A stretch of DNA of 64,000 nt, from positions 56,306 to 120,305 of the forward strand of contig JACPJO010000004.1 of assembly GCA_016187485.1 (NCBI GenBank). Reading direction: 5' to 3'. Below the pieces are notes generated by a model, which was not told the DNA's origin, made no database searches, and saw only the letters and a list, made by a program, of their open reading frames with translations. The DNA comes from Candidatus Uhrbacteria bacterium. GTDB lineage: Bacteria > Patescibacteriota > Patescibacteriia > UBA9934 > UBA10169. How positions within the stretch are numbered: the stretch's first letter is position 1; each line of letters starts with the position of its first letter. This document shows, one piece after another, positions 1,352 to 37,840 of the stretch. Both the position numbers and the translations under genes were made by a program.

Positions 1352-4300
1352 TTATTGCGGACAGTACTCCAAACGGAGGTCGGAAAGATTCACTGTACCC
1401 GACCCGTTGAAGTTGATGTGGAAAGGAATCTGGAAAGCGCCACTTGCGGGACATTCAAATCCGGGCGGGAACGGGAGAAGGACATCATCGCCTTCGCTTG
1501 CGACACCCCCCGCAAAGCCTGTCGTAGTTTCGTAGTTCAAACTGAGACCCAGAATATTTGCGGTGATGGTGTCTACCACTGCCTGGAAACCATCGGCGTC
1601 TGGAGCGTTATAGGCATATTCCACGCCATCGGCGGGAGGCGCACACTCCGGCGTGCCGTCGCTATTGTTAAGTTCATAGAAGTCCACGCCGCATACATCA
1701 CTCGAAAAATGATTATTGACGGCAATTTCGTCGTCGTTTGAAGTAAAGGCGACCGTATAGATAACCGTATTTTCCAGGGTGTCAAGCGTGTCAGACGCGG
1801 CAGCGGCAGCGAGAAGATCGTCCGATTCCCCATCGGAAACAAGAATCACAATACGCACGTCCGTATCTGGCCGATCGGTAGTGAGAAGTTCGTATGCGCG
1901 GCTAAGCCCGTACGCCGTATGCGTACCCAACCCCGTGCCCGGATTTGCTAGTTGGGAAAGGTTAAGTACAAGTTCACTCTTGCTTGCCGTGAACGAGGCA
2001 TTGGGTAGAGGATTCTCTGCAAGCACATCGGTAGCTGGATTTACTTCATTGAAGATGACAATGCCGCTTGCAAGATTGCCGTTGGGGAACGCGTCATAGA
2101 GTTCGTCTGCCGCATCTACGAGCGCTTCTTTCACAATATCAAGACGGGTTGATTCGTCTGCTTCTGGCGGTGTCCCATCAATCTCGTAGGACATGGAAGT
2201 CGAATAATCAATAAGAAAGATGAGATCTATGTTGGGTGGTTCGACATCATCAAAGCTCACCGAGGCGTACAGCGCCGAACCCACAGTACAGGCCGGGAAG
2301 TAGAGAGTGGCATTATCGGGAGCGCCGGCGGTGGCAGGGTCTTCTGACAAGTAGCTCCTCAAATCCACCGAGGTCGTTCGATTGACGGCCGTCTCGCTTT
2401 GCGCCAGCACAGCTCCTTGTTCGAGTGTGAACGGACATGCAAGCGAGCAGGAAGCATTGCAATCTTGAAGCACGCAGCTTCCAAACGTGTCAGGATTAAA
2501 GATTGGGTCTCCGCATGCCTTGTTATAGTCAAAAGTTTCCGGAGGGGGTTGGGCGCAAGGAAATCCGTTGTACACATATTCCCCATCAACGGCCGTCGCA
2601 GACCCGCCATTACAGGTACCCACAAGCGCCTCGCACGTGTAGTCGAAGGGGCAATCCGCATCCGTCCCACAGACTTCGCCGCGCACTCGTTCGGTGGGGT
2701 TGATTGCTCCCTTGAAGCAGTAAGACGGCACGCTTGCTCCATCGCATACCTCTCCGCCGTTGATAACGCCGTCGCCGCAGTAACCACCCGTGACCGTCTG
2801 GTACGTACATGTGGCAGAGCAATAGTTACAGGTGTCACTGTAGGCGGGATTGCAGGGCACCCCGTTTTGTCCGCCGAGGTCGCATGACTCAACGCCAACG
2901 TTGCGCACGCCGTCGCCGCAGACATTTTGCGTGCAGTTATTCCGACACGCATCCTGTTCGTCCGTATCTCCATCATCGCATTCCTCGATCCCCTCCGGAA
3001 TGCCGTTGCCGCATGATCCCACAGGTGCACAGGCCTGCCAGCCGCCCGGGATCCCCGTCGTTGTAGGCCACCGGCACGCATTGGTATAGGGCGGCAGTCC
3101 AAGTCCGTTACACACACGTGTGCGCGTTTGCGGAAGACCAAGCGTATCAGACGCCGTACTTGCAGGGCAGACTCCCGCCCAGGAAAGTGCGGGGTCGCCG
3201 CAGAGAGAGCCGTCGGCACACTCTGCATTTGTCGTACACGGATCCCCATTGACACAGAGTTTCCCGTTCCACTGCTCGTTTGTGCCATCACACTCTTCCG
3301 CGGCACCGTTTACGGTACCGTCCCCGCACGAAGGAGCAGTCCCGGAACAATCCGCTGCGCATCCATATGCAGGATCTGTCGAGTACAGACCGTTGAGATA
3401 ACTTGCCGACGCCGTGCGGCATTGCGGAGTGGGCGCCAGCAAGTTAAAGGACGCGGCGCTGCCGCAATCACAGGCTTCAGCTCCCCCGATAAGTCCATCC
3501 CCGCAAAAGACCGCACTCGTCCACGTGCAGTTGGTCGCACAGAACCCATATTGACCGTTGAGCGGCCCATCATCACACGTCTCCGAACCTTGAATCACGC
3601 CATCCCCGCAGTAGTTAGGAATACAGGCGGCAGAGGTAGAAGCAGTCTGGAAGGCTTGGCATCCCAGGCCCGACGCGTCCGACGGCCCCACGCACGGCAC
3701 GGCGCGCGTTCCCGATGTGGCCACACAGGAGCCGTTGCTTCCGCAATCACTGGCGGTAGTACAAGGCAGGCCATTAAACGAGAGGTTCACGGCGTTTGCA
3801 CACACATTCGTGGAGCAAGAAACAGATGTTGTCTCTCCTACTTCGCAGATTTCTCCCGATCCAATCAACCCGTCTCCGCAGACATTCGTTGCGGTGAAGG
3901 TCGCTCCATTACAGGTGCGCGCATTTTGGAATCCGCCAAGTACAGGCGTGCTCGCAAACGGAGAGGGAAGATTTGCGTTGCCGACATAATATGTCCCGAG
4001 ATTAGGGAGGGGGGAATCCACATCCACGGGCGAGGCCCACGCGAGCGTCGTCTCGGCAGGAGGAGCCACGCCAAATTCCAAATCGGTCGAAAGCCAGAAC
4101 TCTTCCCCGCCGATACTTCGATAGGTGTACACGTGCGAATCTGCCGGACATATCGCCTGCGCTGCCAGAGCGTTGTAACACGTCTCTGCGTCGTAGCCAT
4201 CCGGACAGCTCACAAATGTGTTGAGCGGATCTGTCGGGACCGCGCGGCCAAGCGCGTTGGCCAATTGCGCCTGCCAGCTTGGCCAGGCAGAAAGGGAGAA

Positions 4301-7300
4301 TGAGGGGATATACGTCCCCGATCCAAGCGTCGGCACCGACGCCACGCATTCCTCGGCGCCTGAACAATCGCTGTCTTCAAAACAGAGTTGATCTTTAGTG
4401 ACACTGCAGTGCCGGTGCGTCTCGCCGTATGATGTAAGGGCCTCGCCAATAGTGCGTACGTCCGTAAGACGCTTGAGATCGCGACGGAGCTTGTCCTTGT
4501 CGGCATCGCAAAGCGCCGGCGAACCTCCCGTTGCCACCGCCGCGCACTCTGCATCCGTTGAGCACGCAACAAGCTCCCCATTCACTTCGATCGGGTCCAT
4601 GTCCCCGCTTGGGAGAGGCGTTGCGCAAACCCGGCCGTTTGTGACGGTCAAAAGCCCTGTCGTCAAGTCACGTGCACCGGCAAATTCCCATGCCCCAAGC
4701 ATAGCTTGATAGATTTGCCTGGTTTCCGCTGACGCCCCTTCGTTGTACGCAATCGCATACATATTGGGATAGAGCGCCGCGCCGGTGTTAGGTGCGGAAA
4801 CGTAGACCGTTCGGCCGTCACGCACACCCTCGAACCCGTCCACCGATTCCGCAGCAGGAGAGCCGACAAATCCTTGACCGGCAAACCACTCGGCGGGAGA
4901 GAGATAGTTGCTGTTGGAGAGCACGCGCACACCGATCGCGTCGTGTATATCCGGATCGTCCACGGCAAAAAGGAACTCCTTAAAAATCCCCGGTGACGCA
5001 ATGTTCTGCGTTTTTTGGACAACCGAGAGAGCCGGTAAGTCGTCACTCGTGCCGCGCTCCCCTGCATCACGGCAATAAAATGCGGAGAAATTCGTGTAGG
5101 GCGCAGTAAGCGTAATGCCCGGCGCTGGGTCTCCCGCATACCAGGCAGAATCTACAAACGGGAAATGTCCCACAGCCGGCCACGGGTTTTCACAAAGGAA
5201 CACGCGCTCCTCTACCGTGCCGCCCACGATTCGCCCAACGGTAGTGGGTGAGAGAACCGTATCTTCCATGATACGCAGTTGCGCCATGACATTCTCAACC
5301 CCATTGATCGCGGGGTTTGCCGTGGAAGCAGTTGCTGTTGTGTTGGCGCTGGTTGAAGCACCGGGAGTCACAACGACAATATTGGGGTCGGCGACACTCG
5401 AATTCCACCCCCATGTGGTAGAGACGGAAGTTCCGCTCCATGCCCACGCATACACTCCCGGCACACTCACGATAGGTTGCGCCAACGGCCCTATAAGTGT
5501 CATCGCCTCCGCCGCAAGTGGATGAGCCGTGTTCGCCTGTGTAAACAGGCCGGGGCTCGCGGAGAGGTCTTCCACCTGCACAAAATCTACGTCGCAAATA
5601 GTATTCCCCGTAGCAAAAATACGGGACCACGATGCCTCAAAGTTGGCAAAGACCGAGGAGTTTCCCACGAGCCCAACGCCCCATCGACTCAATACCCCAT
5701 CAGGATTCGCATCCGTATAGTTCGCATCCGCTTCTACCAAAATGCGGTAGAGCGTCTGTGGTTCAAGGATTTGGTTGTAGAGCACCGACACGCGTGTGAT
5801 GAACTCATCAGGATTCGTCTCGACATCTTCGATGGAGAGATTGGAGGCGACAATGCAGCTCACACTTCCCGCCCACGCGCGTGGCGCCACCACGCGCAAA
5901 ATATTCTGCCACAGACGGGCATACCACGGACGGTCAGAAAAATCCTGCACGATGACGGGCGTCGTATTCGTGGGGCAATCAGAGGCCGTCGTGTAGCGTA
6001 CGTCGGCCGAGTCGTAAGCGCCATTGCCGTTCGTGTCCTCCCCAAAAGCCGTAAGCACAATATGCTTCGTCCCGTTATCTTCCAAAATGCTCTCTTCACC
6101 CATTTGTTGCGTAAAGGCCACACGCACAAGCGCGTTTCGACACACGCCGGCACTCGTGGTGGCAAGCGGAACCGTGGTGCTTTCCTGTACCGCCGGACGA
6201 TCAAAACAGCAGTCACTCACCCCACAGCCAAGCAGGGCCGGCTCGCCGCATGTCGCATCGGTTGTGCAGGAGCACGAAAGACCGATCTCGGCCGTGCCAA
6301 ACGCTGAAGTCTCTGTTGCATCGTCCGAACCCGTTGCGCGAAGCGTCGTACGGACTTCCCCGTCCACGACCGCTTGGGTGGCAACGGCCTCGATTTCAAG
6401 CGTCTGGAGGGGATCGTACGGCCCCACCCCATCATCCGCGCTTGAGGAAATTTCACATTCCTCTCCAAGTTCCGGCAGACCGCCGTTGCCACAGAAGGAT
6501 GGCACCGGATAGAAAACCGACGAGCCTTCGTTCTGGCATTGTGCGGAGCACCCGTCACCACTTGTCGTATTTCCATCATCGCACTCCTCGCCGGCTCCTG
6601 TCGTCACGTTGTACTCTCTCCCGTTGGAACCACAGACACCATTCAAAATTCCCGTGGGGGTTGTGCGCGACCAGACACCCGGACCGAGCGGTTCAGCTAA
6701 ACAATTCGCGCTACACCCGTCCCCACTCGTGATACCTCCGTCGTCACAATCTTCCCCTTCTTCGACGTCACCGTTTCCACAGTGCACGCCAATATCGGCG
6801 CTTGGAGTGGAACCTTCGCGCAAACACTGCGCCGAACACCCATCGCCGCTTATCGTATTGCTGTCTTCACACTCCTCCCCGCCGGAACGGCCGTCCGGTG
6901 TTACTGTGTCGAATTGTGAAATCGTTCCGTCATTACATGTAAGTCCCGCCGCCGTCGAACCTTCGTTAAGACATGTTGCGGAACATCCGTTGCCGTCCAG
7001 GTTGCCGTTGTCGTCACATTCTTCGCGCCCTTCCCGGATACCATTGCCACAACACAACAGATCGGTTGCGGGGTTTGCACATGCGGTCACCCCGACGGTT
7101 TGACACGTGGGAGAACACCCAATGGGGTCAAGCGCGACATCACAATCTTCGTAGAAAGGATTGACGATGCCATCTCCGCAGACCGCCGCATACGAAATCG
7201 TCCCCGTACGCAAACACTGTGCACTGCACGAGAGAGCACGATCGGTGTCAGTGTCAAGAGTGGCCGTGAGCGTGCCGTCGGGAAGGTATGTCGCTACCGA

Positions 7301-10300
7301 GATCTGCGTATTCGTGGCAGAGTTCGTCACTTGATTCACCAGCCAATCCCATGCGTAAGCAAGCGGATTCAATACTTGGCCGGCCACGGCACAGCTGTCC
7401 GGTCGCCCCGTCACTGACGCGGAGAAACTTGCGCGGTCCCCCACGGCTTCAAGAATCACCTCAAGGGGGGAGAGAGCAACGTTCCCAATCCCGCAGGGGG
7501 CCGCATTATCCCGCGTGCGGAAAACCCACGAATAATAATTCCCGTAGTTGAGCGGTATAACCGGTGTGCCGTCCGGATTCGTAACCCCCCAGAGGGGAAT
7601 TCCCGGCACGGTAGGACTTTGCGGCTCCGATGTAATCCCCCCCCAGATCATCACACGATAATACATCGAGGGAGAAAGATCCCCGGCAAGTGTAAGTGCA
7701 ACGCCGTCTTCGACGTCCAATGGATCGTTTACAAAAGAGAGCGCTGTGGGGACAGGAGAGGTCGGATTGAAGGTTGCACAGAACTCATCCTCACAGGCAA
7801 AAACGCGCACATTTGGTTCAAGCACGTTTACCGCATTAACGTGACTCCCCGTAAGCCCCGTCGTTCCTGTTGCTTGCATGGCCGTGTTAAAAACGGCACC
7901 CACTTCTGCGTTCACACAGGCTGTCGTGCACTGTGGGTACGCGAGAGATACGGCGGGGTCGGTGAAATTCACGATCAATTCTTCCGTGTCAGAGATGCTG
8001 TAGCCAATGGGCGTGGCCGTGACAAGTGCCGGCTGTCCCGCATTGGTTTCCTCTTCAGGCACCACAAAGATAGGCTGGAGATTTTCAAAGGCCTGCGCGG
8101 CATTCCCCAAAAACAGGAGCGCATCGTTGATGTCCCCTTCAAGAGGACCGTACTGCGGATCTGCCGTCACGGGATCTGCGGCCTCCTCTGCAGCATCAAG
8201 CGCCGAAGAGAGCGTATCACCGGCAAGCAGCACAGGATTGAGCAGCGAGAAGACCGTGACGGTCTCTGCTGCGAGAGCCGTGTTCGTGCTTGTGAGCGTC
8301 GCAGCTGTTGGCCCTACCAGAGCATGCGCTTCAGGGAGGATCGTTTGCAGCGCCAGGAGAGCATCGGCAAGATCTGCAAGGTTGGTCGGAACCTCATCAA
8401 GAAGAGTTGTTGCCGGCGTGGCCGATTCCGGATCCCCAAGTGTTACCGTGTAGGGCGGATCCACATCAAAGTGGATGTTCTTTCCCTGCCGGTCGAGTTC
8501 CCACGCAAAGGCGTAATCATCAGGGTTGATAAGCACACACGCCCCCGTTGCAGGCAGAGCAACATACGGAATCGTCTCGTCGCTCGTCGCCGTATAATCT
8601 GGCGGACTTACGAGCACCTCTTCTACTTCGCAGGGAGTGGTGCTGGAGCGCGTCTTGAATCGATATGCATACGCCTGTGCCAGAGGAACACCACGGTTGT
8701 TTTTAATACCTGTGGTCGCCGTCGCGCGATACCAGGTATCGGGAAGCAGAGCCGTCGCAGGCGAGAAGATCAGGGAGAGATTCGTCGAGAGCAGAAAGTC
8801 TCCGGCAAGATGTCCTGTGGCAACCGTCTCGCAAGGATCCACTCCCGTCCCCGTACACCGATCTACGTAGAATGAGCCGTTGGTAAACGTAGAGATGTCC
8901 ATGCCGCTCGCGGGAAGGCCGGGAGTGAAGGAAACAGAGACCACCGCATTTGTACAGACGGCATCCCCATCGCTCCACAGTGTTGAGGGCGTGGGGGAAA
9001 TAAATGAGGTATCACACTGCGTACGGATTGTCGGATAGTTCGGGATGGGGCCGGTCGAGAAATGATACACGTACTGGGCGTTCACACTTGGCTCCCCGCA
9101 GGCGGCGGGCGTTGCCGCGCAACTGCCGTTCGAGCAACAAATTTGCGATGCCGTACACAACGAGGGCGTCTCTTGGCAATTCCCTACCGCAAAGAGAAGC
9201 TCATTTGATGGTGCGCCAAGAACCGTCACAGAAACCGGACCTGAAATGGCGCCCGTCGGTACAGGAGCGCTGACGTTCTCCGAAGAAGTGAAGCCAACCG
9301 GGCTTGCGGCTACCCCATCGTGGAAGGTGACACTCACTTCCGACGCGCTTGCGCCAAGATTGCTTCCGTAAATATTCACCGCTGTCCCCACAGGCCCCGC
9401 CACAGGCGCAAGCGCGCAAACGCCGGGTGTTGCAGGCGCCGAGACAACCGTGAAATCCTCCGCGTTACTTTGCGGACTCGTAGGGTAATCCGCACGGCGC
9501 ACAAAAATAGATTTGGGATTGGATTCCTCCGACGTGGTCATACTGGCTGGCACTTGCGCCACAATCGCCGAGTCCGTCCACCATGCATTCTGGCACGCAG
9601 CGGGAAAGTCCGGTTCAAACACCACATCGCCAAGCAAAGGGTCCTGAAAGACAACCACCCCTTCGGTAGATCCAAATCGTTGGCCTAAAATAGTCACGTA
9701 TTGCCCCACGCCACCTTCGGTCGGATGCGCAACACATTGTCCGGTTCCACACTGCGTATCGGACACACAAAGCTGCCCCGCATGTACGATATCGTTTTCA
9801 CACAAGGACCGGCCGGATGTCACTTCGCTGATGAACGGCGCACTGGAGGCATCTTCCGGTGAGAGAACACTGAAGTCAATCGTGTTAGACCCCTCATCAT
9901 TCACGAACACTTGGAGATCGTAGTCGCCCGGAGTACTCGGCGGAACAAGCAAGCTGATAAGCGCATCAAGCCACGTATCCACAGCGGGAAAGAATGACGC
10001 GCGATATACCGACGGACCGCTCAAGTAAAACGCCCCGACCGTCGGATCCTCCCCAAAATTATTTCCCACCACCGAGATGCGCGTAGCGGGCAGGCCGTTG
10101 CCCGGCGTTACCGCACAGAGCCCAGGACGGCGCACGTCATTCACATCAAAGTCTTGGATAAGCGGGCCGAAATCGTCATCCGTTCGGTCGGTAATTCCTG
10201 GCGTCGTGGCCGTCTCTGCTTTTACCACGCCGATCGCCCCATCTGCTGCCTCGGCAGGTACCGCCACAACTACCTGCGTGTTGTTCCAGCTCGGCGCCGG

Positions 10301-11728
10301 ACACGCAATGGGATCCACTTTAATGTCATCCGCCTCGGTATCCGGAGAACCGTAGAAGTACACGATGTTCGCTTGTGCACCAAAACCTGTTCCGTGAATC
10401 GTGACGAAATTATCCGGCGCGCCATTGCCAAGCGAAACCGATTGAATCCGCGGACCCGTGACGCAAACGCCGTTTACACAAAGCCCCGACGTGCAATCGC
10501 TGTTTTGGACACACACCGACGCATCGCAAGAAAGACAGTCCTCCCCGCCGCAATCTATCGCCGCCTCATCTTCATTTTGAATGGTGTCGGTACAGTGCGG
10601 GGCAAGAGCCGTCACGGGCACGCTGGAGGATGTCGTTTGATTACCGGCACAATCTGCCGCCACCGCGCGAATGGCATGGGTACTCGCTGGGGTAAGGTTC
10701 CCGGGCGTCCACGAACCCGATGCAAGACAGCTCACGGGACCGTCCCCCGCACAGGATGCCGGACCCGCAGAATCCACGGCTGTATTATCTACCGTAAAGG
10801 TGGTCACGCCCACACCGGAATCATCTGTAAGACTTGCCTGCAGAGACAGGGGGTAGCCCTCGTAGACAGGCGCGCCAGACGACGGATCAGTAATAGTCAC
10901 GGTTGGCCCCGTTGTATCTATGGCATCTGTCGTGGTGAAACCAAAGGAGCACGGCGCGGCAAGCGAACAGGCAATCTCTACGCCGTCCGCGCTTCGTAGA
11001 CCCTCAGAAACACGTACTTCGTAAGAAGTCGCCGGCTCAAAGCAGCGCTCAGAAGAACTGGGACAAGAAGCATCCGGCAGAACAGTAAGCACACGGCCAG
11101 AAGCGGAGAGATCCGTGGAAATAGCGTCCCCTCCGACAGGCGTCACGGTTATGTAAGGGGCAAGGGCGCTCGCGGACGTGGGAAGGTTTCGATTGAAGAG
11201 AATCTGAATCTCCGCATTTCTCGGCACCGAGGGAACCGAGGCCAGACACCCCCACGACGTAACGACAAATTGTGTGCGGTAGTCGGCAGGACATGTGGCG
11301 CAGGTGCTCAAATTTGTATCCTCCGGCCCCCCAATGACGTTGTTCTGCGACGTGGCGCCCACGAGCGATGAAATGACGAATTGCGCAATAGCAAAGGACG
11401 CCAAAATGATGGCAAGCCCGATGACCGCATTAATAATCATGCCGCGCGCTTTGCGCACCTTTTCCTCTTCTCCCTTCGAGAGCATCCACAAAAACCCGGC
11501 GTACAAGATCATGCCAATCAAGACCACGCCAGAGAACGTAATCGCTGCGCGCACAAGCCGCGCAATGATAAGACGGATGTCCGATGTCCCTCCAAACCCC
11601 GCTTGTGTGGCAAAATCTCCGAGGCCCTCGGTAATCGGCGACGAGGCGGCAAAAACAATATCGGGAAGCCACACGAGTGCGCCGAGAGAGAGGAGGAAGA
11701 CCAGTTGGGAGATGATGCGGCGTTTCAT
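1352..11728 (-). CDS. Giant (3458 aa) secreted, membrane-anchored surface protein. N-terminal signal peptide plus two-helix pilin-like hairpin, IPT/TIG-like beta-sandwich repeats, two arrays of Cys-rich CGDG/CGNG-x-EECDDGN-x-DGCS repeats (Myxococcus cysteine-rich-repeat type), C-terminal von Willebrand factor A domain with a MIDAS motif
   Basis: Single uninterrupted ORF with balanced amino-acid composition. N-terminus MKRRIISQLVFLLSLGALVWLPDIVFAASS, then TM helices GVVLIGMILYAGFLWM and AVIGLAIILASFAIAQFVI. Motifs VTIHGTGFG, VTILGQRFG and VNIYGSNLG are IPT-like. Repeats such as CGNGIREGREECDDNGNLDGNGCSATC occur about 6 and about 10 times. The VWA motif is DLIFLIDYSTSMS...GLGTHTAYGL...VILVSDGES. 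Confidence 0.85.
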   Translation of the reverse strand: MKRRIISQLVFLLSLGALVWLPDIVFAASSPITEGLGDFATQAGFGGTSDIRLIIARLVRAAITFSGVVLIGMILYAGFLWMLSKGEEEKVRKARGMIINAVIGLAIILASFAIAQFVISSLVGATSQNNVIGGPEDTNLSTCATCPADYRTQFVVTSWGCLASVPSVPRNAEIQILFNRNLPTSASALAPYITVTPVGGDAISTDLSASGRVLTVLPDASCPSSSERCFEPATSYEVRVSEGLRSADGVEIACSLAAPCSFGFTTTDAIDTTGPTVTITDPSSGAPVYEGYPLSLQASLTDDSGVGVTTFTVDNTAVDSAGPASCAGDGPVSCLASGSWTPGNLTPASTHAIRAVAADCAGNQTTSSSVPVTALAPHCTDTIQNEDEAAIDCGGEDCLSCDASVCVQNSDCTSGLCVNGVCVTGPRIQSVSLGNGAPDNFVTIHGTGFGAQANIVYFYGSPDTEADDIKVDPIACPAPSWNNTQVVVAVPAEAADGAIGVVKAETATTPGITDRTDDDFGPLIQDFDVNDVRRPGLCAVTPGNGLPATRISVVGNNFGEDPTVGAFYLSGPSVYRASFFPAVDTWLDALISLLVPPSTPGDYDLQVFVNDEGSNTIDFSVLSPEDASSAPFISEVTSGRSLCENDIVHAGQLCVSDTQCGTGQCVAHPTEGGVGQYVTILGQRFGSTEGVVVFQDPLLGDVVFEPDFPAACQNAWWTDSAIVAQVPASMTTSEESNPKSIFVRRADYPTSPQSNAEDFTVVSAPATPGVCALAPVAGPVGTAVNIYGSNLGASASEVSVTFHDGVAASPVGFTSSENVSAPVPTGAISGPVSVTVLGAPSNELLFAVGNCQETPSLCTASQICCSNGSCAATPAACGEPSVNAQYVYHFSTGPIPNYPTIRTQCDTSFISPTPSTLWSDGDAVCTNAVVSVSFTPGLPASGMDISTFTNGSFYVDRCTGTGVDPCETVATGHLAGDFLLSTNLSLIFSPATALLPDTWYRATATTGIKNNRGVPLAQAYAYRFKTRSSTTPCEVEEVLVSPPDYTATSDETIPYVALPATGACVLINPDDYAFAWELDRQGKNIHFDVDPPYTVTLGDPESATPATTLLDEVPTNLADLADALLALQTILPEAHALVGPTAATLTSTNTALAAETVTVFSLLNPVLLAGDTLSSALDAAEEAADPVTADPQYGPLEGDINDALLFLGNAAQAFENLQPIFVVPEEETNAGQPALVTATPIGYSISDTEELIVNFTDPAVSLAYPQCTTACVNAEVGAVFNTAMQATGTTGLTGSHVNAVNVLEPNVRVFACEDEFCATFNPTSPVPTALSFVNDPLDVEDGVALTLAGDLSPSMYYRVMIWGGITSEPQSPTVPGIPLWGVTNPDGTPVIPLNYGNYYSWVFRTRDNAAPCGIGNVALSPLEVILEAVGDRASFSASVTGRPDSCAVAGQVLNPLAYAWDWLVNQVTNSATNTQISVATYLPDGTLTATLDTDTDRALSCSAQCLRTGTISYAAVCGDGIVNPFYEDCDVALDPIGCSPTCQTVGVTACANPATDLLCCGNGIREGREECDDNGNLDGNGCSATCLNEGSTAAGLTCNDGTISQFDTVTPDGRSGGEECEDSNTISGDGCSAQCLREGSTPSADIGVHCGNGDVEEGEDCDDGGITSGDGCSANCLAEPLGPGVWSRTTPTGILNGVCGSNGREYNVTTGAGEECDDGNTTSGDGCSAQCQNEGSSVFYPVPSFCGNGGLPELGEECEISSSADDGVGPYDPLQTLEIEAVATQAVVDGEVRTTLRATGSDDATETSAFGTAEIGLSCSCTTDATCGEPALLGCGVSDCCFDRPAVQESTTVPLATTSAGVCRNALVRVAFTQQMGEESILEDNGTKHIVLTAFGEDTNGNGAYDSADVRYTTASDCPTNTTPVIVQDFSDRPWYARLWQNILRVVAPRAWAGSVSCIVASNLSIEDVETNPDEFITRVSVLYNQILEPQTLYRILVEADANYTDANPDGVLSRWGVGLVGNSSVFANFEASWSRIFATGNTICDVDFVQVEDLSASPGLFTQANTAHPLAAEAMTLIGPLAQPIVSVPGVYAWAWSGTSVSTTWGWNSSVADPNIVVVTPGASTSANTTATASTANPAINGVENVMAQLRIMEDTVLSPTTVGRIVGGTVEERVFLCENPWPAVGHFPFVDSAWYAGDPAPGITLTAPYTNFSAFYCRDAGERGTSDDLPALSVVQKTQNIASPGIFKEFLFAVDDPDIHDAIGVRVLSNSNYLSPAEWFAGQGFVGSPAAESVDGFEGVRDGRTVYVSAPNTGAALYPNMYAIAYNEGASAETRQIYQAMLGAWEFAGARDLTTGLLTVTNGRVCATPLPSGDMDPIEVNGELVACSTDAECAAVATGGSPALCDADKDKLRRDLKRLTDVRTIGEALTSYGETHRHCSVTKDQLCFEDSDCSGAEECVASVPTLGSGTYIPSFSLSAWPSWQAQLANALGRAVPTDPLNTFVSCPDGYDAETCYNALAAQAICPADSHVYTYRSIGGEEFWLSTDLEFGVAPPAETTLAWASPVDVDSPLPNLGTYYVGNANLPSPFASTPVLGGFQNARTCNGATFTATNVCGDGLIGSGEICEVGETTSVSCSTNVCANAVNLSFNGLPCTTASDCGSNGSCVATSGTRAVPCVGPSDASGLGCQAFQTASTSAACIPNYCGDGVIQGSETCDDGPLNGQYGFCATNCTWTSAVFCGDGLIGGAEACDCGSAASFNLLAPTPQCRTASASYLNGLYSTDPAYGCAADCSGTAPSCGDGTVNGAAEECDGTNEQWNGKLCVNGDPCTTNAECADGSLCGDPALSWAGVCPASTASDTLGLPQTRTRVCNGLGLPPYTNACRWPTTTGIPGGWQACAPVGSCGNGIPEGIEECDDGDTDEQDACRNNCTQNVCGDGVRNVGVESCDLGGQNGVPCNPAYSDTCNYCSATCTYQTVTGGYCGDGVINGGEVCDGASVPSYCFKGAINPTERVRGEVCGTDADCPFDYTCEALVGTCNGGSATAVDGEYVYNGFPCAQPPPETFDYNKACGDPIFNPDTFGSCVLQDCNASCSLACPFTLEQGAVLAQSETAVNRTTSVDLRSYLSEDPATAGAPDNATLYFPACTVGSALYASVSFDDVEPPNIDLIFLIDYSTSMSYEIDGTPPEADESTRLDIVKEALVDAADELYDAFPNGNLASGIVIFNEVNPATDVLAENPLPNASFTASKSELVLNLSQLANPGTGLGTHTAYGLSRAYELLTTDRPDTDVRIVILVSDGESDDLLAAAAASDTLDTLENTVIYTVAFTSNDDEIAVNNHFSSDVCGVDFYELNNSDGTPECAPPADGVEYAYNAPDADGFQAVVDTITANILGLSLNYETTTGFAGGVASEGDDVLLPFPPGFECPASGAFQIPFHINFNGSGTVNLSDLRLEYCPQ

Positions 11729-11737
11729 GCAAGGTTT

Positions 11738-13648
11738 CTAGGGAGCGGGAGGAGAGAAAATGGGCGGTAGGGGACACGAGCCGGAGGCAAGCGCATTTCC
11801 GTCGCAACAACTTGGCTGTGAGGCATCCACGGCGCAATCCCCCGGCGGGCCATAGGCGGGGTAATAACAAATTTGATAGGCCGACTCCACTTCGTTATTG
11901 ATAAAAGGGTAGTACAGCTGTGTGATGGTATCCTCCAGGTAGTCCAGGAACGACCCGTGCTCCAAAACCGCAACGGTCCCCACGACTTCTGGCTCCGTCG
12001 CAGGCGGGACTGCGGGCACCGTCACTCCCTCCGCAAGAGGCCGATACCAAATTTCATGGAACGGGCGCGGAGCAATGCCCATATTCGTGTTCGTTAGTGA
12101 CCCTACACGCATCGGCACATCAAACGTCACGCGCACGGGGGCAGAAATATCCACGTCGGGCTGATTTAACGTGGGAAGCAAGGACGCGATGGCGGGGCGA
12201 TCGAGGTTTACATCATCCGTCGTTGAAAAAAATGACCAAAAGTTGTCTATGGCAAGATCGTCGTCCGGCTCTGGCGTCAGTGCCGCGTTGGCTGGCGGCC
12301 CATTGGCAATAAGATTTTGGTCGTCGCCGTTTTTCCCACCTCCATCCAGAGAATTCCCTGCCACGTCCACCACGCCATCGTAGCCCACAGCCGTAAAGAG
12401 CGCTTGAGGCGGTTCGGCGCCGAGCGTGGCGGCACGCACCAGAAGCGTAAAGTCATCATTCCCTGGAAGACAGAAGATTGCTCCTCCGCAAGCGTTCTCG
12501 CCGCATTGGTCAAAACTCGTAAATTCGGTCGTGCGGTACCCATTTGTGATGCGCCATGTGCCTTCTACCGGTACCGCGTCACTATCGTCGTCACGCACTT
12601 GGAGGTTTGAGAAAAATCTTGCCGGCGTGGCGGTGGGACGATGCACTCCCGCCGTGGCGGTAGGGTCTACCGCCTCATTGAAGTTCACTTGCACCACGAT
12701 ATTGCGGTCTACAGTCCGATCGGCAACAGGAATAACGCTTTGCACATAGGGCGGGGTAATATCCACCACCGTGGAGACCGTAAATGACCAGGCATAGCCC
12801 GTGGTATTGGGCGGAGGGAAGGCCGGAAACGTTGTCGTAAGGTCAGGGCCAAGTTTCAAAATATCGGCATCCAAAAGGACAGAGTAGTTTTGCTCTTCTT
12901 CTGCGCTTCCAATAAACTCCACCGGGTCAAAGACAAAGATTTTTTTGTCTGCTGTATACGTGACGTCTACGGCATCTTGCACAAGAGCGCCCGCAACCCC
13001 ATCAGCCGTACGGTAAATTTTCACATTGCCCGCATTCACTTTACCCCGCGGGACTTCGGCCACCGGATCAATCGTGCCCGGAGCAATGAGGGAGTCAACA
13101 AACATCGATTCTTTAAATGTCACGATAATTTTTGTGTTGCGCGGGATCTCTACCGCTCCGCGAGCGGGATAATGATCTTCGATAATCCCCTGCCCCAGCG
13201 CTCCCGAAAGCGGTTCAATAAAGCCGGCAATGTTGGTAGAGGTAGATGGCTGGCGAAGCCCGAGCGAGCGCAGAAGCGCACTTAAGATAAACGAAGCGAT
13301 TCCGTAAGACGCAAGCACGATAGCCAAACCGATGACGGCGGTGCGAATGATGCCGCGCGCGGTTTGGATTTTCTTGGGATCGCCACCTGCCAGCATGTAG
13401 CGAATACCGGCGTACACAATGAGACAGACAAAGACGATGCCCAAAAACCCAATGACCGCACGAACAATCTTTGCTGCAATCACGCGAACGTCTTGTGTGG
13501 GCAGACCCTGAGCGCCAATGTCAGAAAGATTTGCGCCAAGCCCTGCTTCTGCGCCGAATGCTATCGACGAGAGAAAAAACAAACCCGCCGTCACGCTAAG
13601 AGTGATGGCTAAAAAAAGAGCGCTGCGTTTTGCACCCACAAACCGCAT
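11738..13648 (-). CDS. 636-aa secreted, membrane-anchored protein. Its N-terminal signal peptide plus two-TM hairpin module is paralogous to that of the giant protein
   Basis: N-terminus MRFVGAKRSALFLAITLSVTAGLFFLSSIAFGA...VRVIAAKIVRAVIGFLGIVFVCLIVYAGIRYMLAGGDPKKIQTARGIIRTAVIGLAIVLASYGIASFI aligns residue-by-residue with the giant protein's N-terminus. Its stop lies 10 nt upstream of the giant gene's start. Confidence 0.75.
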   Translation of the reverse strand: MRFVGAKRSALFLAITLSVTAGLFFLSSIAFGAEAGLGANLSDIGAQGLPTQDVRVIAAKIVRAVIGFLGIVFVCLIVYAGIRYMLAGGDPKKIQTARGIIRTAVIGLAIVLASYGIASFILSALLRSLGLRQPSTSTNIAGFIEPLSGALGQGIIEDHYPARGAVEIPRNTKIIVTFKESMFVDSLIAPGTIDPVAEVPRGKVNAGNVKIYRTADGVAGALVQDAVDVTYTADKKIFVFDPVEFIGSAEEEQNYSVLLDADILKLGPDLTTTFPAFPPPNTTGYAWSFTVSTVVDITPPYVQSVIPVADRTVDRNIVVQVNFNEAVDPTATAGVHRPTATPARFFSNLQVRDDDSDAVPVEGTWRITNGYRTTEFTSFDQCGENACGGAIFCLPGNDDFTLLVRAATLGAEPPQALFTAVGYDGVVDVAGNSLDGGGKNGDDQNLIANGPPANAALTPEPDDDLAIDNFWSFFSTTDDVNLDRPAIASLLPTLNQPDVDISAPVRVTFDVPMRVGSLTNTNMGIAPRPFHEIWYRPLAEGVTVPAVPPATEPEVVGTVAVLEHGSFLDYLEDTITQLYYPFINNEVESAYQICYYPAYGPPGDCAVDASQPSCCDGNALASGSCPLPPIFSPPAP

Positions 13649-15883: not shown

Positions 15884-16495
15884 TTAAAGGGTATCGTACA
15901 CGGGCGTTTGAAATCCTCCAAGACGCGAAAACGGGAAGCCGCGGAACCAGACGCGGCCGACCATTAAGTCTCGCCCGACGGGACCGAAACTGCGCGAGTC
16001 AAGACTGTAATCCCGGTTGTCGCCCAGAAGATAATACTCCTGGGCTCCGAGTTCTACGCGCTTCTTCCCCACGGTCTCGGCGCCATCAAGATACGGCTCC
16101 TTAAGCGGAAGTCCCTCGGGGTATGCGTCGTTATAAATCTTTACGCGTCCCTCATCTACCTCGACTGTTTCGCCAGGAAGCCCGATAACGCGCTTGATAA
16201 AATACTGGCTTGGGTCCCGGGGATATTGGAAAACAATAATCTCGCCACGCTCGGGCTCACGAAACCGGTAGGAGATTTCGTCTATCACCAGATACTCATT
16301 GTCGTAAAAATTCGGTTCCATGCTGGCGCCGCGCACAATGAACGGCTGGATCAGAAAAGCGCGGATGGGGATGATGATCGCTGCGGAGATCGCCAAAATC
16401 TGCACGAGTTCTACAATAAAAACAATCACGGAGCCAAAGACCCCGAATCGTTCCGACCAATGCGCCCTCTCCGGCACCGAAGGCATGTCTTCCAT
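15884..16495 (-). CDS. lepB: Signal peptidase I (S26 family)
   Basis: GASMEPNFYDNEYLVIDEISYRF...IKRVIGLPGETV...LGDNRDYSLDSRSFGPV. The track ORF begins at a TTG inside a palindrome at about 16534. The first ATG (MEDMPSVPE) is at about 16495. Confidence 0.85.
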   Translation of the reverse strand: MEDMPSVPERAHWSERFGVFGSVIVFIVELVQILAISAAIIIPIRAFLIQPFIVRGASMEPNFYDNEYLVIDEISYRFREPERGEIIVFQYPRDPSQYFIKRVIGLPGETVEVDEGRVKIYNDAYPEGLPLKEPYLDGAETVGKKRVELGAQEYYLLGDNRDYSLDSRSFGPVGRDLMVGRVWFRGFPFSRLGGFQTPVYDTL

Positions 16496-16534
16496 AGGTG
16501 CGAGCACTTTATCAAGGAAATTTCCAAAAATCAA

Positions 16535-16558
16535 CCCCTCCCTTCGCGAAGGGAGGGG
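16535..16558 (-). terminator. Perfect 24-bp palindrome CCCCTCCCTTCGCGAAGGGAGGGG followed on the minus strand by a T-run (TTGATTTTTGG). Rho-independent terminator or attenuator after the kinase gene
   Basis: Seen directly. It lies between the kinase stop (16559) and the lepB start. Confidence 0.5.
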
Positions 16559-18631
16559 TCAACTAGCAGCCTGTTTCTCTGCATGCGCCAGAGCATCTGC
16601 GTGGAGCTTGCGTTGAAGAATCTCGTTTTCGATTTTGAATTTGAGCTGGTACGCCTGCTGGAGCGCTTCGTGCGGTGTGGGGCGCGCCAAGAAACTTCGG
16701 GCCGTAAGTTGGCGAACGAAACGAAACGTGTCGGGGATCGCTCCGTAGGTCTTGAATTCTGTGATATGTCTGGCGAGTGATTCCTTCTGCGCCTCGGAAA
16801 ACGGCGGATCCGTTTCCACACGGCCCTCGTAGATGGCCTGCATCTGCGCGAGATTATAATTCAGGTCGCCGTACTGCAGACCTCCGTGTTTGTCGTACGC
16901 GCGGTCTTCAAGAAGTTCTTTTACGCCCGTTCGCTTCATCTTCCCGTGCCCTAAGATATTCATGAGAATCACGCCCACGGCAAACGTATCCACTTTCGTC
17001 TGCTCCTTCCAGTCCGGAACCTTCGCTCTCGCGGCAACTTGCTCCGGAGCGATATAGAGCGGCGTCCCCACGACGTTTCCTTCTTTTGTCTCAAGAGGCG
17101 ATTCTGACCGAAGCCGAGACGGCTGTGTTTGCTCAATCGCCTCACCGTCTGGAAGAGCGGCAAGATACTGTTGCATCCGCGCATTATCCCAATTGCGCGG
17201 TGACCACTTTTGCAATTCCGGAAGGTCGGCGAGTTCCTTGTACGCGTATCTCTCCACGAGCCTTTGCAAGCGTGGAACGAGCTCACGCATGCTCGCAATT
17301 TTTTCTTCTGAAGATAGTTCCTCTTGCGTCACAGCCGCTACATCTCTCAAAGCTTCCCAAATGGCCTCCTGCTCTTTCATGGGGAGAAGTTCCCCGAGGC
17401 GCTCCGCCTTACCCTGTTCCTCCGTCCGTGCAAGAAATCCGACACCCCGCACCGACACCAGGGTATACAGTGCATGCGCATCGTGAAGAATCTTCCCCCA
17501 CAGAGTGTGCGTGGCCTCAGAAAACGCAACAACGTCTCCCGACCTGGACCCTTTGGCAAGTCCGAAGTCAAGAAGGTCAAGGCGCCCGTCGGCTCCGCGC
17601 ATAAGGTTCGCCGGCTTCACGTCCCGATGCCGCAGACCGCGCGTATTCATGATCGCAAGCGCTTCAAGCACATCAATGATGTCGTTCATTGCCTTCGAGC
17701 AAACTTCAAGCTGTTCAAAACGATTTCCCTGTTGAAATACGCGCAGACTTTCCCGGCGGTGATCAATCAACTCTCGTTGAAATGACGAGCCTTCTACATA
17801 TTCCATAAACACCGCGATAGCCTCGCGTGTGCGCACCGTCTCTTGCCATGCGTCGGCCAACACCTGAACTTTTTCTTTCTGTCTCGTCTGGAGACGAATA
17901 GCATCAAAGAAAGCCGGAAAATGCGCGGCCTCAACGGGAGAGAACTCTTTACCCTCTGCCATAATCCCCTTTGCAAGCGAAGAAAGAACCACGCCGTTTT
18001 CGTTGCGTCCGGGATGCAGAGCTGCATGCGCGGCAATCTCACGGGCCACCATGGTTTCCTTGCGGATTGTATCTTCCACAAGCGCCGGCTCGCCACGAGA
18101 AACCGCCACGATCTTCATGACAATTTTCTTCCCCGTCTCGCGCGAAGTCCCTACATACGCACGCGCCATCCCGCCTGCCCCCAAAAATTCAAAATCAAAT
18201 GTCTGCCCATGAAGCTCAAGAGTTTTTGGTGCAGGAAACACGTGTCCATCTTTGTCCTCAAAACGGGAGGCCTCCATGGAATAGGTGTAGCGGCCCATCC
18301 AGCCGTGAACAAAAAGCGGGTTCAGATCTTTCAAGGTGGTAAAGATTCGTTCCGCTTGGTGTTCCTTCTGCTCTTCTGCGGACCACACGGGCCAGGCAAA
18401 ACCTTTTTGGTCGCGCACACGTACAGCGGGGGGCATTTTTACTTCCACGCGCATGGCAGGGGCCCGCTCTTTTTCGAAGTTCGCCGTATCTTCCCACAAC
18501 TCTTCTGGTAAATAGCCCGGGTCGTTCACCTGATCAATGTCTTCCACGCCATAAATCTCAATCGTAGGTTCCAGTGGAACCCGTGGCTCTTCGTTCTGCT
18601 CTTCCATGGACATGCGCTCAACACGTGGCAT
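16559..18631 (-). CDS. Eukaryotic-like Ser/Thr protein kinase, cytoplasmic, with a long insertion in the activation segment
   Basis: LRHRDVKPANLM (catalytic loop), LLDFGLAKG (DFG) and GTPLYIAPEQ (APE). DFG and APE are separated by about 150-170 aa. No TM or PASTA domain. The track start is a TTG at 18670. The first ATG (MPRVERMSMEEQ) is at about 18631. Confidence 0.8.
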   Translation of the reverse strand: MPRVERMSMEEQNEEPRVPLEPTIEIYGVEDIDQVNDPGYLPEELWEDTANFEKERAPAMRVEVKMPPAVRVRDQKGFAWPVWSAEEQKEHQAERIFTTLKDLNPLFVHGWMGRYTYSMEASRFEDKDGHVFPAPKTLELHGQTFDFEFLGAGGMARAYVGTSRETGKKIVMKIVAVSRGEPALVEDTIRKETMVAREIAAHAALHPGRNENGVVLSSLAKGIMAEGKEFSPVEAAHFPAFFDAIRLQTRQKEKVQVLADAWQETVRTREAIAVFMEYVEGSSFQRELIDHRRESLRVFQQGNRFEQLEVCSKAMNDIIDVLEALAIMNTRGLRHRDVKPANLMRGADGRLDLLDFGLAKGSRSGDVVAFSEATHTLWGKILHDAHALYTLVSVRGVGFLARTEEQGKAERLGELLPMKEQEAIWEALRDVAAVTQEELSSEEKIASMRELVPRLQRLVERYAYKELADLPELQKWSPRNWDNARMQQYLAALPDGEAIEQTQPSRLRSESPLETKEGNVVGTPLYIAPEQVAARAKVPDWKEQTKVDTFAVGVILMNILGHGKMKRTGVKELLEDRAYDKHGGLQYGDLNYNLAQMQAIYEGRVETDPPFSEAQKESLARHITEFKTYGAIPDTFRFVRQLTARSFLARPTPHEALQQAYQLKFKIENEILQRKLHADALAHAEKQAAS

Positions 18632-18671
18632 AACGAGGGCTATTGTAGCGGTTTTTTTGGCAGGAGACAAA

Positions 18672-18696
18672 AACTCTCCGTTCGAACGGAGAGTTT
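18672..18696 (-). terminator. Hairpin AACTCTCCG-TTCGAA-CGGAGAGTT with a downstream T-run on the minus strand. Terminator immediately 3' of tRNA-Val
   Basis: Seen directly. 9-bp perfect stem. On the minus strand it is followed by TTTTGTCTCC. Confidence 0.5.
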
Positions 18697-18697
18697 T

Positions 18698-18774
18698 TGG
18701 TGGACGTTGGAGGATTCGAACCTCCGACCTTTCGAATGTGAATCGAACGCTCTAACCAGCTGAGCTAAACGTCC
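18698..18774 (-). tRNA. tRNA-Val (anticodon CAC), CCA encoded
   Basis: Reverse complement GGACGTTTAGCTCAGCTGGTTAGAGCGTTCGATTCACATTCGAAAGGTCGGAGGTTCGAATCCTCCAACGTCCACCA folds into a canonical cloverleaf. Perfect 7-bp acceptor stem. Anticodon loop TTCACAT. Confidence 0.88.
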
Positions 18775-22202: not shown

Positions 22203-23825
22203 CTACTTGATGTCTTCGCCGTAGCAGCTCTGGGCTCTGCCTTCGGCGTTCTTGGTGCAGAGGGTGGGAATGCCCCCGCAGTAGTACCGGTCGTAGAGGG
22301 TGCGCTTCTCGCGACCCTTCACGTTGACGGCACCGGGCACGCACTCGCCCTTGAGGACATCGCCCGTCAGCATCGCCTCGAGCGCGCGCTGGGCGTACCC
22401 AGCTTTCTTCTCGGCGGCGAGAGCGCGCTCGTCAGCCTTGCCGAACTTGGTCTCGGCCAAGTGCGCCGAAGCGGCAGACTCCGCCGCAGCGGCTTCAGCA
22501 GCCGAGCGCAGTTCCTCCCGACGGGACGTTTCCTTCGAGAAGACGGTGATGAGACTGGCCACGTGGTCGTTCATCCACTCCGACGACTCGCCGATGCTCG
22601 CGATCTGCTCGCTCTGGGTTGCGTCCACGCGGCCCTGGTGCATCCAGAACGCAACGATTCCAGTAGCAAGGACGGTAAAGAGGCCGATCACGATCGTCCG
22701 CACACGCTTGAGCGCGTGGAGAGCCAGAGAGAGGCGTTGACCGAGATCTTCCACCTGCTTCACGGACGGGAGCGCGATGACCGGCATCGGCCGCTCCGTC
22801 CCGGGGGTCGTCTGCTGCCTGGACGGCGGCGGCTCGGGGTAGGCCAGCCTGCGCAGTGCCACCATCCCCTGCTCCATGGTCATGAGCCGATCCCACATAC
22901 CGTCGAAGACCGCACGGTTGTACGCCGGCTCTCCGCTTCCGTCGCAGATGACCGCGACGATCTGCGTCCACATGCCCGTGAGGTCCGGACGACTGATCGT
23001 GAAGGGGAACTTCGTCGCCAGGATGGCCCAGACATTCTGGGCGTTCATCGCCTTGGGAGCATCCCCCATCCCGAGGACCTCGGCCCACAGGTAGTCGCGG
23101 CGCAAGTTGGGCAGACGCCACAGATCTTCGGGACTGGGCGGCGCCTTCGCTGCCTGATCTTCACGCTTGAGCTGCTTCCAGATCGTGTCAAAGCTCGCCC
23201 GTCCGAGGGGAGGAAGATCACCCTGGCAGAGCATCAACTCCACCATCAGGTTGAAGTCAAGACGCATCTGCGGAAGAGCGACGATGTTGGGGAAGTGCCG
23301 CTGAAGCAGCCGCCAGGCGTTGTCCTCGTTGATGTCCCGAGGGTCCATCCCCTCGATCTCGAAGACCCGGCAGAGATACGCCCACCGGACGTCCAGGCCC
23401 CTCCAGTTGGCCTCAGGGTTCGGATCCGGCGCCACGGGCGGGCCGTTGCCCCCTCCGTTCGCTTCAAGTTCCGCCGCCACGCGGTGCATCTCGTCGGGGT
23501 CGAAGCCCTCCGTTTCCTCATCGTTCCCGATGCCATCGTGGATGGCTGCGGCCAGCACGTCCCGCCGACGGTCACCCTGGAACAATGGCCCCTCCGGAAT
23601 GCCGGGAATGGATCCCCCCTCTTCGTCTGCTGTCTGCACCGGCGGGGCACCACCAACCACCGGCACGATGCCGGGGCGCGGAAGATCCGTCGAGCCGGGG
23701 GCAGCCTCTCCCTCATCCCCAGGCGGTCGGGGAAGAAATCCCTCGTCTTCCACGATCTGTGCGGGACCCTTCTGGCCCTTGTTTCCATCGTTGCTTGAAA
23801 TGAGCATTCTGTTGTCTCCCTCCAT
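22203..23825 (-). CDS. Hypothetical 540-aa protein with compositionally foreign (very high GC3) codon usage. Disordered Pro/Gly/Glu N-terminus, two tandem aromatic-rich repeats of about 85 aa, one TM helix, a coiled-coil Ala/Glu segment and a Cys-rich C-terminus
   Basis: Balanced amino-acid composition on the minus frame. The overlapping plus-strand ORFs are Arg-rich artefacts. Repeats are ...WRLLQRHFPNIVALPQMRLDFNLMVELMLCQGDLPPLGRASFDTIWKQL and ...VWAILATKFPFTISRPDLTGMWTQIVAVICDGSGEPAYNRAVFDGMWDRL. TM helix IVIGLFTVLATGIVAFWMH. Confidence 0.6.
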   Translation of the reverse strand: MEGDNRMLISSNDGNKGQKGPAQIVEDEGFLPRPPGDEGEAAPGSTDLPRPGIVPVVGGAPPVQTADEEGGSIPGIPEGPLFQGDRRRDVLAAAIHDGIGNDEETEGFDPDEMHRVAAELEANGGGNGPPVAPDPNPEANWRGLDVRWAYLCRVFEIEGMDPRDINEDNAWRLLQRHFPNIVALPQMRLDFNLMVELMLCQGDLPPLGRASFDTIWKQLKREDQAAKAPPSPEDLWRLPNLRRDYLWAEVLGMGDAPKAMNAQNVWAILATKFPFTISRPDLTGMWTQIVAVICDGSGEPAYNRAVFDGMWDRLMTMEQGMVALRRLAYPEPPPSRQQTTPGTERPMPVIALPSVKQVEDLGQRLSLALHALKRVRTIVIGLFTVLATGIVAFWMHQGRVDATQSEQIASIGESSEWMNDHVASLITVFSKETSRREELRSAAEAAAAESAASAHLAETKFGKADERALAAEKKAGYAQRALEAMLTGDVLKGECVPGAVNVKGREKRTLYDRYYCGGIPTLCTKNAEGRAQSCYGEDIK

Positions 23826-33550: not shown

Positions 33551-33627
<77 letters not shown>

Positions 33628-33636
33628 ATTGTTCGG

Positions 33637-33713
33637 GGCTGGGTAGCTCAGTTGGTTAGAGCGAGGGACTCATAAGCCCTAGGTCGCCGGTTCGATTCCG
33701 GCCCCAGCTACCA
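33637..33713 (+). tRNA. tRNA with CAU anticodon: elongator Met or Ile2 (lysidine)
   Basis: GGCTGGGTAGCTCAGTTGGTTAGAGCGAGGGACTCATAAGCCCTAGGTCGCCGGTTCGATTCCGGCCCCAGCTACCA. Elongator-type acceptor stem. Its identity cannot be fixed from sequence alone. Confidence 0.8.
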
Positions 33714-37839: not shown

Positions 37840-37840
37840 A

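Follow-up and report, generated by a model that had tools for sequence, protein, structure and literature searches.

Bacterial Hanks-type protein kinases are normally regulated from outside the catalytic core, through PASTA or TPR domains, FHA partners or juxtamembrane regions. Domain-sized insertions in the activation segment itself are documented in eukaryotic kinases (Greatwall, NDR/LATS and STK16), and the one in Greatwall, also named MASTL, is a long non-conserved region. Here we describe a kinase of a Candidatus Uhrbacteria bacterium in which a conserved helical segment of 145 amino acids (aa) is inserted between the DFG and APE motifs. The gene lies on the minus strand of a 64,000-nucleotide stretch (hereafter the window; contig JACPJO010000004.1 of assembly GCA_016187485.1, positions 56,306 to 120,305).

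Three eukaryotic cases serve as analogues. NDR1 has a long activation segment that prevents substrates from binding and keeps the αC helix in an inactive, non-productive state (PMC6087429). MASTL carries a 548-aa insertion in its activation loop (PMC6930252), and MPSK1/STK16 has a helical insertion in its activation segment (PMC2194165). Full-text literature searches turned up no account of a structured insertion of domain size at this position in any Hanks kinase of bacteria, and nothing on Uhrbacteria kinases, although absence from the library searched is no proof. The features on which the comparison depends are the following (window coordinates).

16559..18631, minus strand: kinase coding sequence (CDS), 690 aa plus stop; the ATG aligns with the starts of the orthologues and the NCBI protein is 100% identical
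17606..17629, minus strand: catalytic loop HRDVKPAN, of RD and Ser/Thr type, with R336, D337, K339, P340 and N342 invariant
17561..17569, minus strand: DFG motif; K360 at DFG+5, a position that is basic in five of the six subfamily-A members
17102..17536, minus strand: the 145-aa insertion in the activation segment, residues 366-510, delimited with a canonical-kinase profile; alignments to single kinases show the same gap
17243..17545, minus strand: insertion core of three long helices (about 363-395, 418-436 and 441-463), with conserved Y389, GxGF (396-399), L416 and W425
17087..17089, minus strand: T515, candidate activation-loop phospho-acceptor, seven residues before the G of GTPLY
17042..17068, minus strand: P+1 loop and APE motif, GTPLYIAPE, placed by phmmer against the PDB and by kinase-profile alignment

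The protein is a Hanks-type (eukaryotic-like) Ser/Thr kinase, as the initial annotation of this stretch had proposed. Pfam Pkinase (PF00069) matches it with 72.1 bits against a cut-off of 31.7 (E 6.4e-20), in three separate stretches. Residues are numbered here on the 690-aa protein; in the 703-aa frame that was first noted, HRD falls at 348, DFG at 368, GTP at 535 and APE at 541. Checking the translations confirmed that the catalytic motifs HRDVKPAN (335-342), DFG (355-357) and APE (within GTPLYIAPE, 522-530) are intact and where they had been placed. The remaining landmarks are a Gly-rich loop (LGAGGMA), the β3 lysine K173, the αC glutamate E198, the αF aspartate D548 and the αH-αI arginine R650. 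The APE motif, the αF Asp and the αH-αI Arg form the GHI subdomain, which distinguishes eukaryotic protein kinases from small-molecule kinases. Besides the loop residues listed above, K173, E198, D355, G357, G522, E530, D548 and R650 are invariant across the 10 members of the family described below. Neither a transmembrane (TM) segment nor a PASTA domain is present, as already stated in the initial annotation: the maximum Kyte-Doolittle 19-mer is 1.18, and the Pfam search gave no PASTA match and no second domain. A signal peptide or secretion domain was not found in the protein either. We regard it as a soluble cytoplasmic kinase of the RD class that, judging from its sequence, is probably active.

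The boundaries of the insertion are sharp. In a profile built from 120 canonical kinases, the consecutive positions 165 and 166 align to residues 365 and 511, and therefore residues 366-510 form an insertion of 145 aa and the APE motif is correctly assigned. This is slightly less than the 150-170 aa estimated earlier. Alignments against single kinases show the same behaviour, with the query jumping from 361 to 494 where the target is contiguous. Also, a phmmer search of the PDB places GTPLYIAPEQ...VDTFAVGVIL on the P+1/APE/αF segment of PknB and PERK. A mis-assigned APE motif had been named beforehand as the result that would overturn the claim, and these two analyses exclude it. Other errors that could mimic an insertion are a frameshift or a chimeric assembly of two genes. 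We found no evidence in favour of any of these artefacts: in profile and structural alignments APE, αF and αH-αI all follow the insert, the open reading frame (ORF) is single and uninterrupted with a uniform composition, and the same architecture recurs in nine independent relatives from different samples. The chance that the insertion is an artefact appears negligible.

The spacing from the D of DFG to the A of APE illustrates how far the protein departs from the norm. It amounts to 173 residues here and 171-213 across the family, against a median of 34 and a 95th percentile of 59 in 316 other kinases. Six outliers among these were inspected, including all with a spacing above 150, and they are proteins with several kinase domains. 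A comparable activation-segment insertion was not seen among the 316 kinases sampled. The architecture, described before as that of an unusual regulatory kinase, is thus unusual indeed; that it is also regulatory we would say with more reserve.

Relatives with the same insertion are rare. Searching 1.84 billion representative proteins exhaustively with phmmer yielded 38,882 kinase matches, and only nine of them align through the insertion in one stretch (P0061-P0068 and P0070; 659-796 aa, 22-31% identity). All nine carry it, which answers the homologue search that had been proposed, and since the insertion is kept in every relative it is not the product of a single assembly. Relatives with a named source belong to Uhrbacteria or to the Parcubacteria group, and the labelled samples are groundwater metagenomes. 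A scan of 185,579 species-representative genomes with patterns specific for subfamily A returned one locus and a scan of JGI metagenomes four loci, whereas a genome scan with the single kinase protein as query gave no match. A word-indexed protein search with the whole kinase retrieved only the protein itself (NCBI 'hypothetical protein HYW18_01720 [Candidatus Uhrbacteria bacterium]', 690 aa, 100% identical), and its remaining matches are confined to the catalytic loop; with the family alignment as query the output was dominated by ordinary kinases. The family is very small and very rapidly diverging, and it comes from Uhrbacteria or Parcubacteria in every taxonomically labelled case. One further locus (L005, '86%') encodes a protein identical to P0061, so that no suitable close pair was available for dN/dS.

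The insertion is helical and conserved. In the AlphaFold model of the full-length protein its helices run at about 362-395, 418-436 and 441-467. When the insert is predicted in isolation, the predicted local distance difference test (pLDDT) is 72 overall and 82-92 in the three long helices. That the isolated insert is still predicted as three helices suggests a core able to fold on its own as a three-helix bundle. A linker, variable and predicted with low confidence, occupies residues 496-521. Conservation follows the same division: the BLOSUM62 score per column is 0.8-1.35 in the insert helices against 0.67-1.2 in the kinase lobes, and drops to 0.02 in the linker (496-513), so that by this alignment score the helices are constrained as much as the lobes. 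Conserved positions include R365 and a helix with the pattern LSxEEQxEIWxWL, in addition to the residues listed above. The insert alone gave nothing significant against Pfam or PDB sequences, and no specific structural or sequence relative was found for it. Its GC content and third-position GC content (GC3) equal those of the rest of the gene, and it is therefore not a recent foreign insertion.

How does this arrangement compare with that of known kinases? The PknB-type kinases (M. tuberculosis PknB, S. aureus PknB/Stk1) give some of the best matches to the core, in sequence as well as in structure, and share the RD-type loop, but unlike them the present protein has no TM or PASTA domains and does have the 145-aa helical insertion, a further insertion between αC and β5, and an N-terminal extension. 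As a PASTA kinase it was rejected (NF033483: 50.7 bits against a cut-off of 450; no TM segment, no PASTA match). With NDR1/LATS it shares an extra segment between subdomains VII and VIII, ahead of the phosphosite. This is a positional analogy only: the NDR insert spans tens of residues against a 145-aa bundle here, the NDR proteins belong to the AGC kinases and have a hydrophobic motif as well as an N-terminal region that binds MOB, and the inserts share no sequence similarity. Membership of the AGC group itself was also rejected, as the C-terminal 41 residues lack FxxF[ST][FY] and AGC kinases are not preferred among the structural matches. Greatwall/MASTL is likewise a eukaryotic AGC kinase, and in contrast to its insertion the one found here is conserved and helical, with no homology between the two. 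STK16 and GAK do occur among the structural matches, but the MPSK1/STK16/NAK-family insertion is a short helical element rather than a three-helix bundle. Finally, in COQ8A a bundle replaces the activation loop, whereas the present kinase keeps APE, αF and αH-αI. An atypical kinase of the UbiB/ABC1 type was rejected for the same reason, and also because the Pfam ABC1 match stays below its threshold (14.2 bits against a cut-off of 22.9) and is restricted to the catalytic loop.

What the bundle might do can be read from where it sits. The insertion starts ten residues after DFG (after β9) and ends five residues before T515, a position at which each of the six subfamily-A members has Thr and which matches the consensus Thr in the profile of canonical bacterial kinases. 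By our own count on the PknB sequence T515 is in register with T171 of PknB. In subfamily A the HRD Arg, the basic DFG+5 residue and the loop Thr are all present, and the usual pocket for binding phospho-Thr is therefore intact. We consider it reasonably probable, though well short of certain, that the protein is an active RD kinase whose built-in bundle regulates the activation segment or is a docking site for it. Gating seems the most likely form of such control because the module separates the Mg-binding DFG from the phospho-acceptor/P+1 loop and because the RD pocket is kept. The bundle would then keep the segment out of its productive position or present a surface for docking, and release would come from phosphorylation of T515, from binding of a partner, or from both. 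The analyses show the fold and catalytic residues of the protein, and the limits, conservation and helical character of its insertion. Catalytic activity, phosphorylation of T515, the autoinhibitory or docking role and the nature of the substrates are points that we infer, with NDR1 as the model for the mechanism.

Several observations weigh against control of this kind. In subfamily B the motif reads D[ILY]G, DFG+5 is not basic, and the member P0070 lacks a Ser/Thr in the loop; loop-phosphorylation control therefore cannot apply to the whole family. The family alignment is shallow, as it holds only 10 sequences (the kinase and its nine relatives). The full-length AlphaFold model is of moderate quality (pLDDT 63.9, predicted template modelling score 0.64). 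A PP2C phosphatase, an FHA protein or a second kinase was not found within the 64-kb window. Also, the very fast divergence and the cassette-like replacement described below fit a role in conflict at least as well as they fit housekeeping signalling.

The substitutions in subfamily B bear on another possibility, namely that the fold is kept for binding only, as a pseudokinase or scaffold, with the bundle as a protein-interaction domain. The very low conservation within the family (22-29%) and the replacement of the DFG Phe by I, L or Y in subfamily B would fit this, and so would one database version of P0063 (GenBank KKW34212.1, 720 aa; L001 8001-10163), which lacks a 43-aa segment holding GSPKYSPPE, its APE region. 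That segment is, however, present in an otherwise identical version of 763 aa (L004 / P0330), and the gap is therefore an assembly or strain deletion and not a trait of the family. Moreover, all residues needed for phosphotransfer (K173, E198, D337, N342 and D355) are invariant. A protein without catalytic function seems very unlikely to us, and a kinase with a gating bundle remains the account we prefer.

The genomic context adds a second unusual property. The order of genes in the window is yqeY, rpsU, hisS, lepB, kinase, tRNA-Val, LCP-family protein, der, pth and dprA, which is a housekeeping neighbourhood. In comparisons of the window with three relatives the kinase is only 24-27% identical whereas the flanking proteins are 50-74% identical; it is by far the most divergent gene of the block that still shows detectable similarity. 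The same is seen in the slot from tRNA-Val to lepB (16559-18700 in the window) of L001 (GW2011_GWA2_53_21, 7858-10458) and L002 (GCA_040960375.1, 7937-11160). Here the flanking proteins are 87-100% identical (lepB 96%, hisS 93%, rpsU 100%) and the flanking DNA 83-94%, whereas the two kinases are 23% identical and show no blastn similarity. Homology between these loci ends in a 62-bp promoter block, returns in the last 60-90 nt of the CDS and appears again just before lepB. This pattern has the look of a cassette exchanged between ends that stay conserved, the alleles of subfamilies A and B being idiomorph-like.

Given such turnover, it might be argued that the kinase acts in biological conflict, either as an anti-phage abortive-infection sensor (of the Stk2/PD-T4-6 type) or as an effector against the host of the episymbiont. 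The variable N-terminal tail and the helical insert would then serve to recognise a trigger or a target, with diversifying selection behind the rapid turnover. Divergence between near-identical flanks, with homology left only at the ends of the slot, speaks for such a role, and the rarity of the family points the same way. Furthermore, the slot adjoins a tRNA gene at which an island with a type II methyltransferase has integrated in L002 and L003, and the PADLOC models PD-T4-6 and mad6 match the kinase. These matches are limited to the generic core, however: PD-T4-6 reaches 80 bits (PADLOC shows no cut-off) by aligning residues 311-365 to positions 108-162 of 292, the NCBIfam model MADS6 scores 31.2 bits against a cut-off of 460, and mad partner genes are not present in the window. 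The methyltransferase island is a separate tRNA-targeted insertion outside the kinase cassette, the neighbours hisS, lepB, LCP and der are housekeeping genes, and the protein has no signal peptide or secretion domain. Other family members adjoin queA/rpsB or have a PP2C phosphatase in their vicinity, a setting that points to ordinary reversible signalling. Overall we think a conflict role unlikely, although it has to be taken seriously. A combined version, in which the tRNA-Val/lepB slot holds rapidly exchanged kinase alleles and the bundle is a trigger-sensing switch engaged by a foreign or host protein, strikes us as rather improbable.

Some details of these loci deserve separate mention. 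The island measures about 2.5 kb and is bounded by tRNA-Val and a second copy of the tRNA 3' end (L002 5381-7994, L003 1021-3600), which is the signature of tRNA-targeted integration, distinct from the kinase cassette. It encodes a type II N6/N4 DNA methyltransferase and also an ORF of 305 aa that carries no annotation and may be the restriction partner. At the site of the island L001 has two tandem tRNA-Val(CAC) genes. The subfamily-B loci (L002 10131-11117; L003 5791-6729) contain an extra ORF of 312-328 aa between kinase and lepB, without a database match, which is a possible partner of the subfamily-B kinases. In L011 (5750-6610) a PP2C_2-type phosphatase is encoded 2 kb downstream of P0064, the only kinase-phosphatase proximity in the family.

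Outside the core motifs and the activation segment the protein has the following further parts.

18359..18631, minus strand: acidic tail at the N-terminus (residues 1-91) with predicted disorder and little conservation (pLDDT below 50 for residues 1-101; BLOSUM62 0.46 per column)
18191..18358, minus strand: family-specific N-terminal extension, residues 92-147, with the motif IFxxLKxLNPFxxRxWMGExxY
17828..18031, minus strand: second insertion of about 55-68 aa between αC and β5, residues 201-268; positions 70 and 84 of the canonical profile align to residues 200 and 269
16565..16675, minus strand: αI and C-terminal helix, residues 653-689, predicted with high confidence; the tail ends in small residues

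Residues 92-147 are predicted to form a helix and extra β-strands ahead of β1, and a Pfam search with this extension gave no match. Long extensions had been noted at both ends of the protein; this is right for the N-terminal part, whereas the C-terminal part amounts to only some 30-40 residues with one predicted helix. The extra length of the C-lobe reflects internal expansion and not a C-terminal extension. Family C-termini (16562-16600 in the window) end in small residues (...QAAS, ...TAS, ...DVA, ...RAAG, ...RVAG), and P0063 and P0066 share a nearly identical Glu/Ala/Gln-rich tail while being otherwise 23% identical. Such a tail could act as a C-terminal signal that has been conserved, or as an anchor for recombination.

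The gene model and its transcription signals involve the following elements.

18698..18774, minus strand: tRNA-Val(CAC), directly upstream of the kinase and in the same place in four syntenic relatives
18668..18699, minus strand: perfect palindrome of 16+16 nt with A and T runs on its flanks, the tRNA-Val terminator, overlapping the TTG at 18670
18632..18670, minus strand: part of the first-noted ORF that is probably not translated, with a -10-like TACAAT at 18642-18647
16534..16559, minus strand: perfect palindrome of 13+13 nt, followed by TTGATTTTT; likely intrinsic terminator between kinase and lepB
15884..16495, minus strand: lepB, signal peptidase I, 203 aa; the start is most likely ATG 16495, and the orthologues are all 203 aa long

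The coding region had been drawn from 16559 to 18670. An uninterrupted frame of 703 codons starting at TTG does exist, but the TTG at 18670 is the wrong start because it lies inside the tRNA-Val terminator hairpin. The start is ATG 18631, in agreement with the NCBI gene model and, in an alignment of upstream regions, with the starts of the orthologues. The same alignment shows a block conserved among four syntenic orthologues, running from the tRNA 3' end through hairpin, T-run and -10-like box to the ATG about 10 nt further on. In the window the TACAAT box stands 10 nt upstream of the kinase ATG. Such spacing suggests that the kinase mRNA is probably leaderless or nearly so and made from its own promoter.

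Downstream, the kinase stop codon overlaps the palindrome at 16534-16559. The palindrome had been reported as 24 bp and is in fact slightly longer; its RNA folds with -28.7 kcal/mol (z = -2.98), a value equalled by one in 200 shuffled sequences. Positional conservation of this hairpin was not found across the orthologous loci. Since the kinase appears to have a promoter of its own behind the tRNA-Val terminator and is followed by a separate terminator ahead of lepB, it is related to lepB by synteny rather than as part of an operon, and the two look like separate transcription units. The adjacency to lepB that had been pointed out holds in the window, but only part of the family has it: the gene order is conserved in four members and not in two others, which again makes the link one of synteny and not of function. 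One of these two is the member with a PP2C-like gene 2 kb downstream.

The wider window contains further genes of interest. Between pth and dprA, in a slot conserved among the relatives, lies a 540-aa ORF (22203-23825, minus strand) with no Pfam or PADLOC match and no detectable similarity to the ORFs of 580-592 aa in the same slot of the relatives. The latter are 47% identical between L001 and L002, against about 90% for the flanks, which makes this a second fast-evolving gene of the region. A giant protein of 3458 aa (1352-11728, minus strand) and its neighbour of 636 aa (11738-13648, minus strand) both open with a T4SS_pilin domain and continue with domains of the Big_5, TIG, Big_7 and VWA types. 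Syntenic counterparts occur in the relatives (3259-3477 aa), and both proteins are probably surface or pilus-associated adhesins of the episymbiont. Finally, there are two tandem tRNA-Met(CAT) genes (33551-33713, plus strand) and two adjacent genes for class II aminoacyl-tRNA synthetases of the D/K/N type (36442-39187, minus strand).

Summarizing, the kinase fold, its chemistry and the site of the insertion are known already, the latter from eukaryotic precedents. New are the conserved three-helix-bundle insertion, its restriction to one lineage and the hypervariable locus. While function is so far read from the protein and its context, the architecture and the turnover of alleles should be of note to kinase specialists. 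The kinase is one of few signalling proteins specific to Uhrbacteria, and a conserved bundle at this position in a lineage of the candidate phyla radiation (CPR) would be a compact natural case of activation-loop gating. Extreme divergence within near-identical flanks is in turn a candidate marker of conflict or host interaction in these uncultivated episymbionts. Should a conflict role with the bundle as sensor prove true, it would be a new way for a bacterial Hanks kinase to couple recognition straight to its activation loop.

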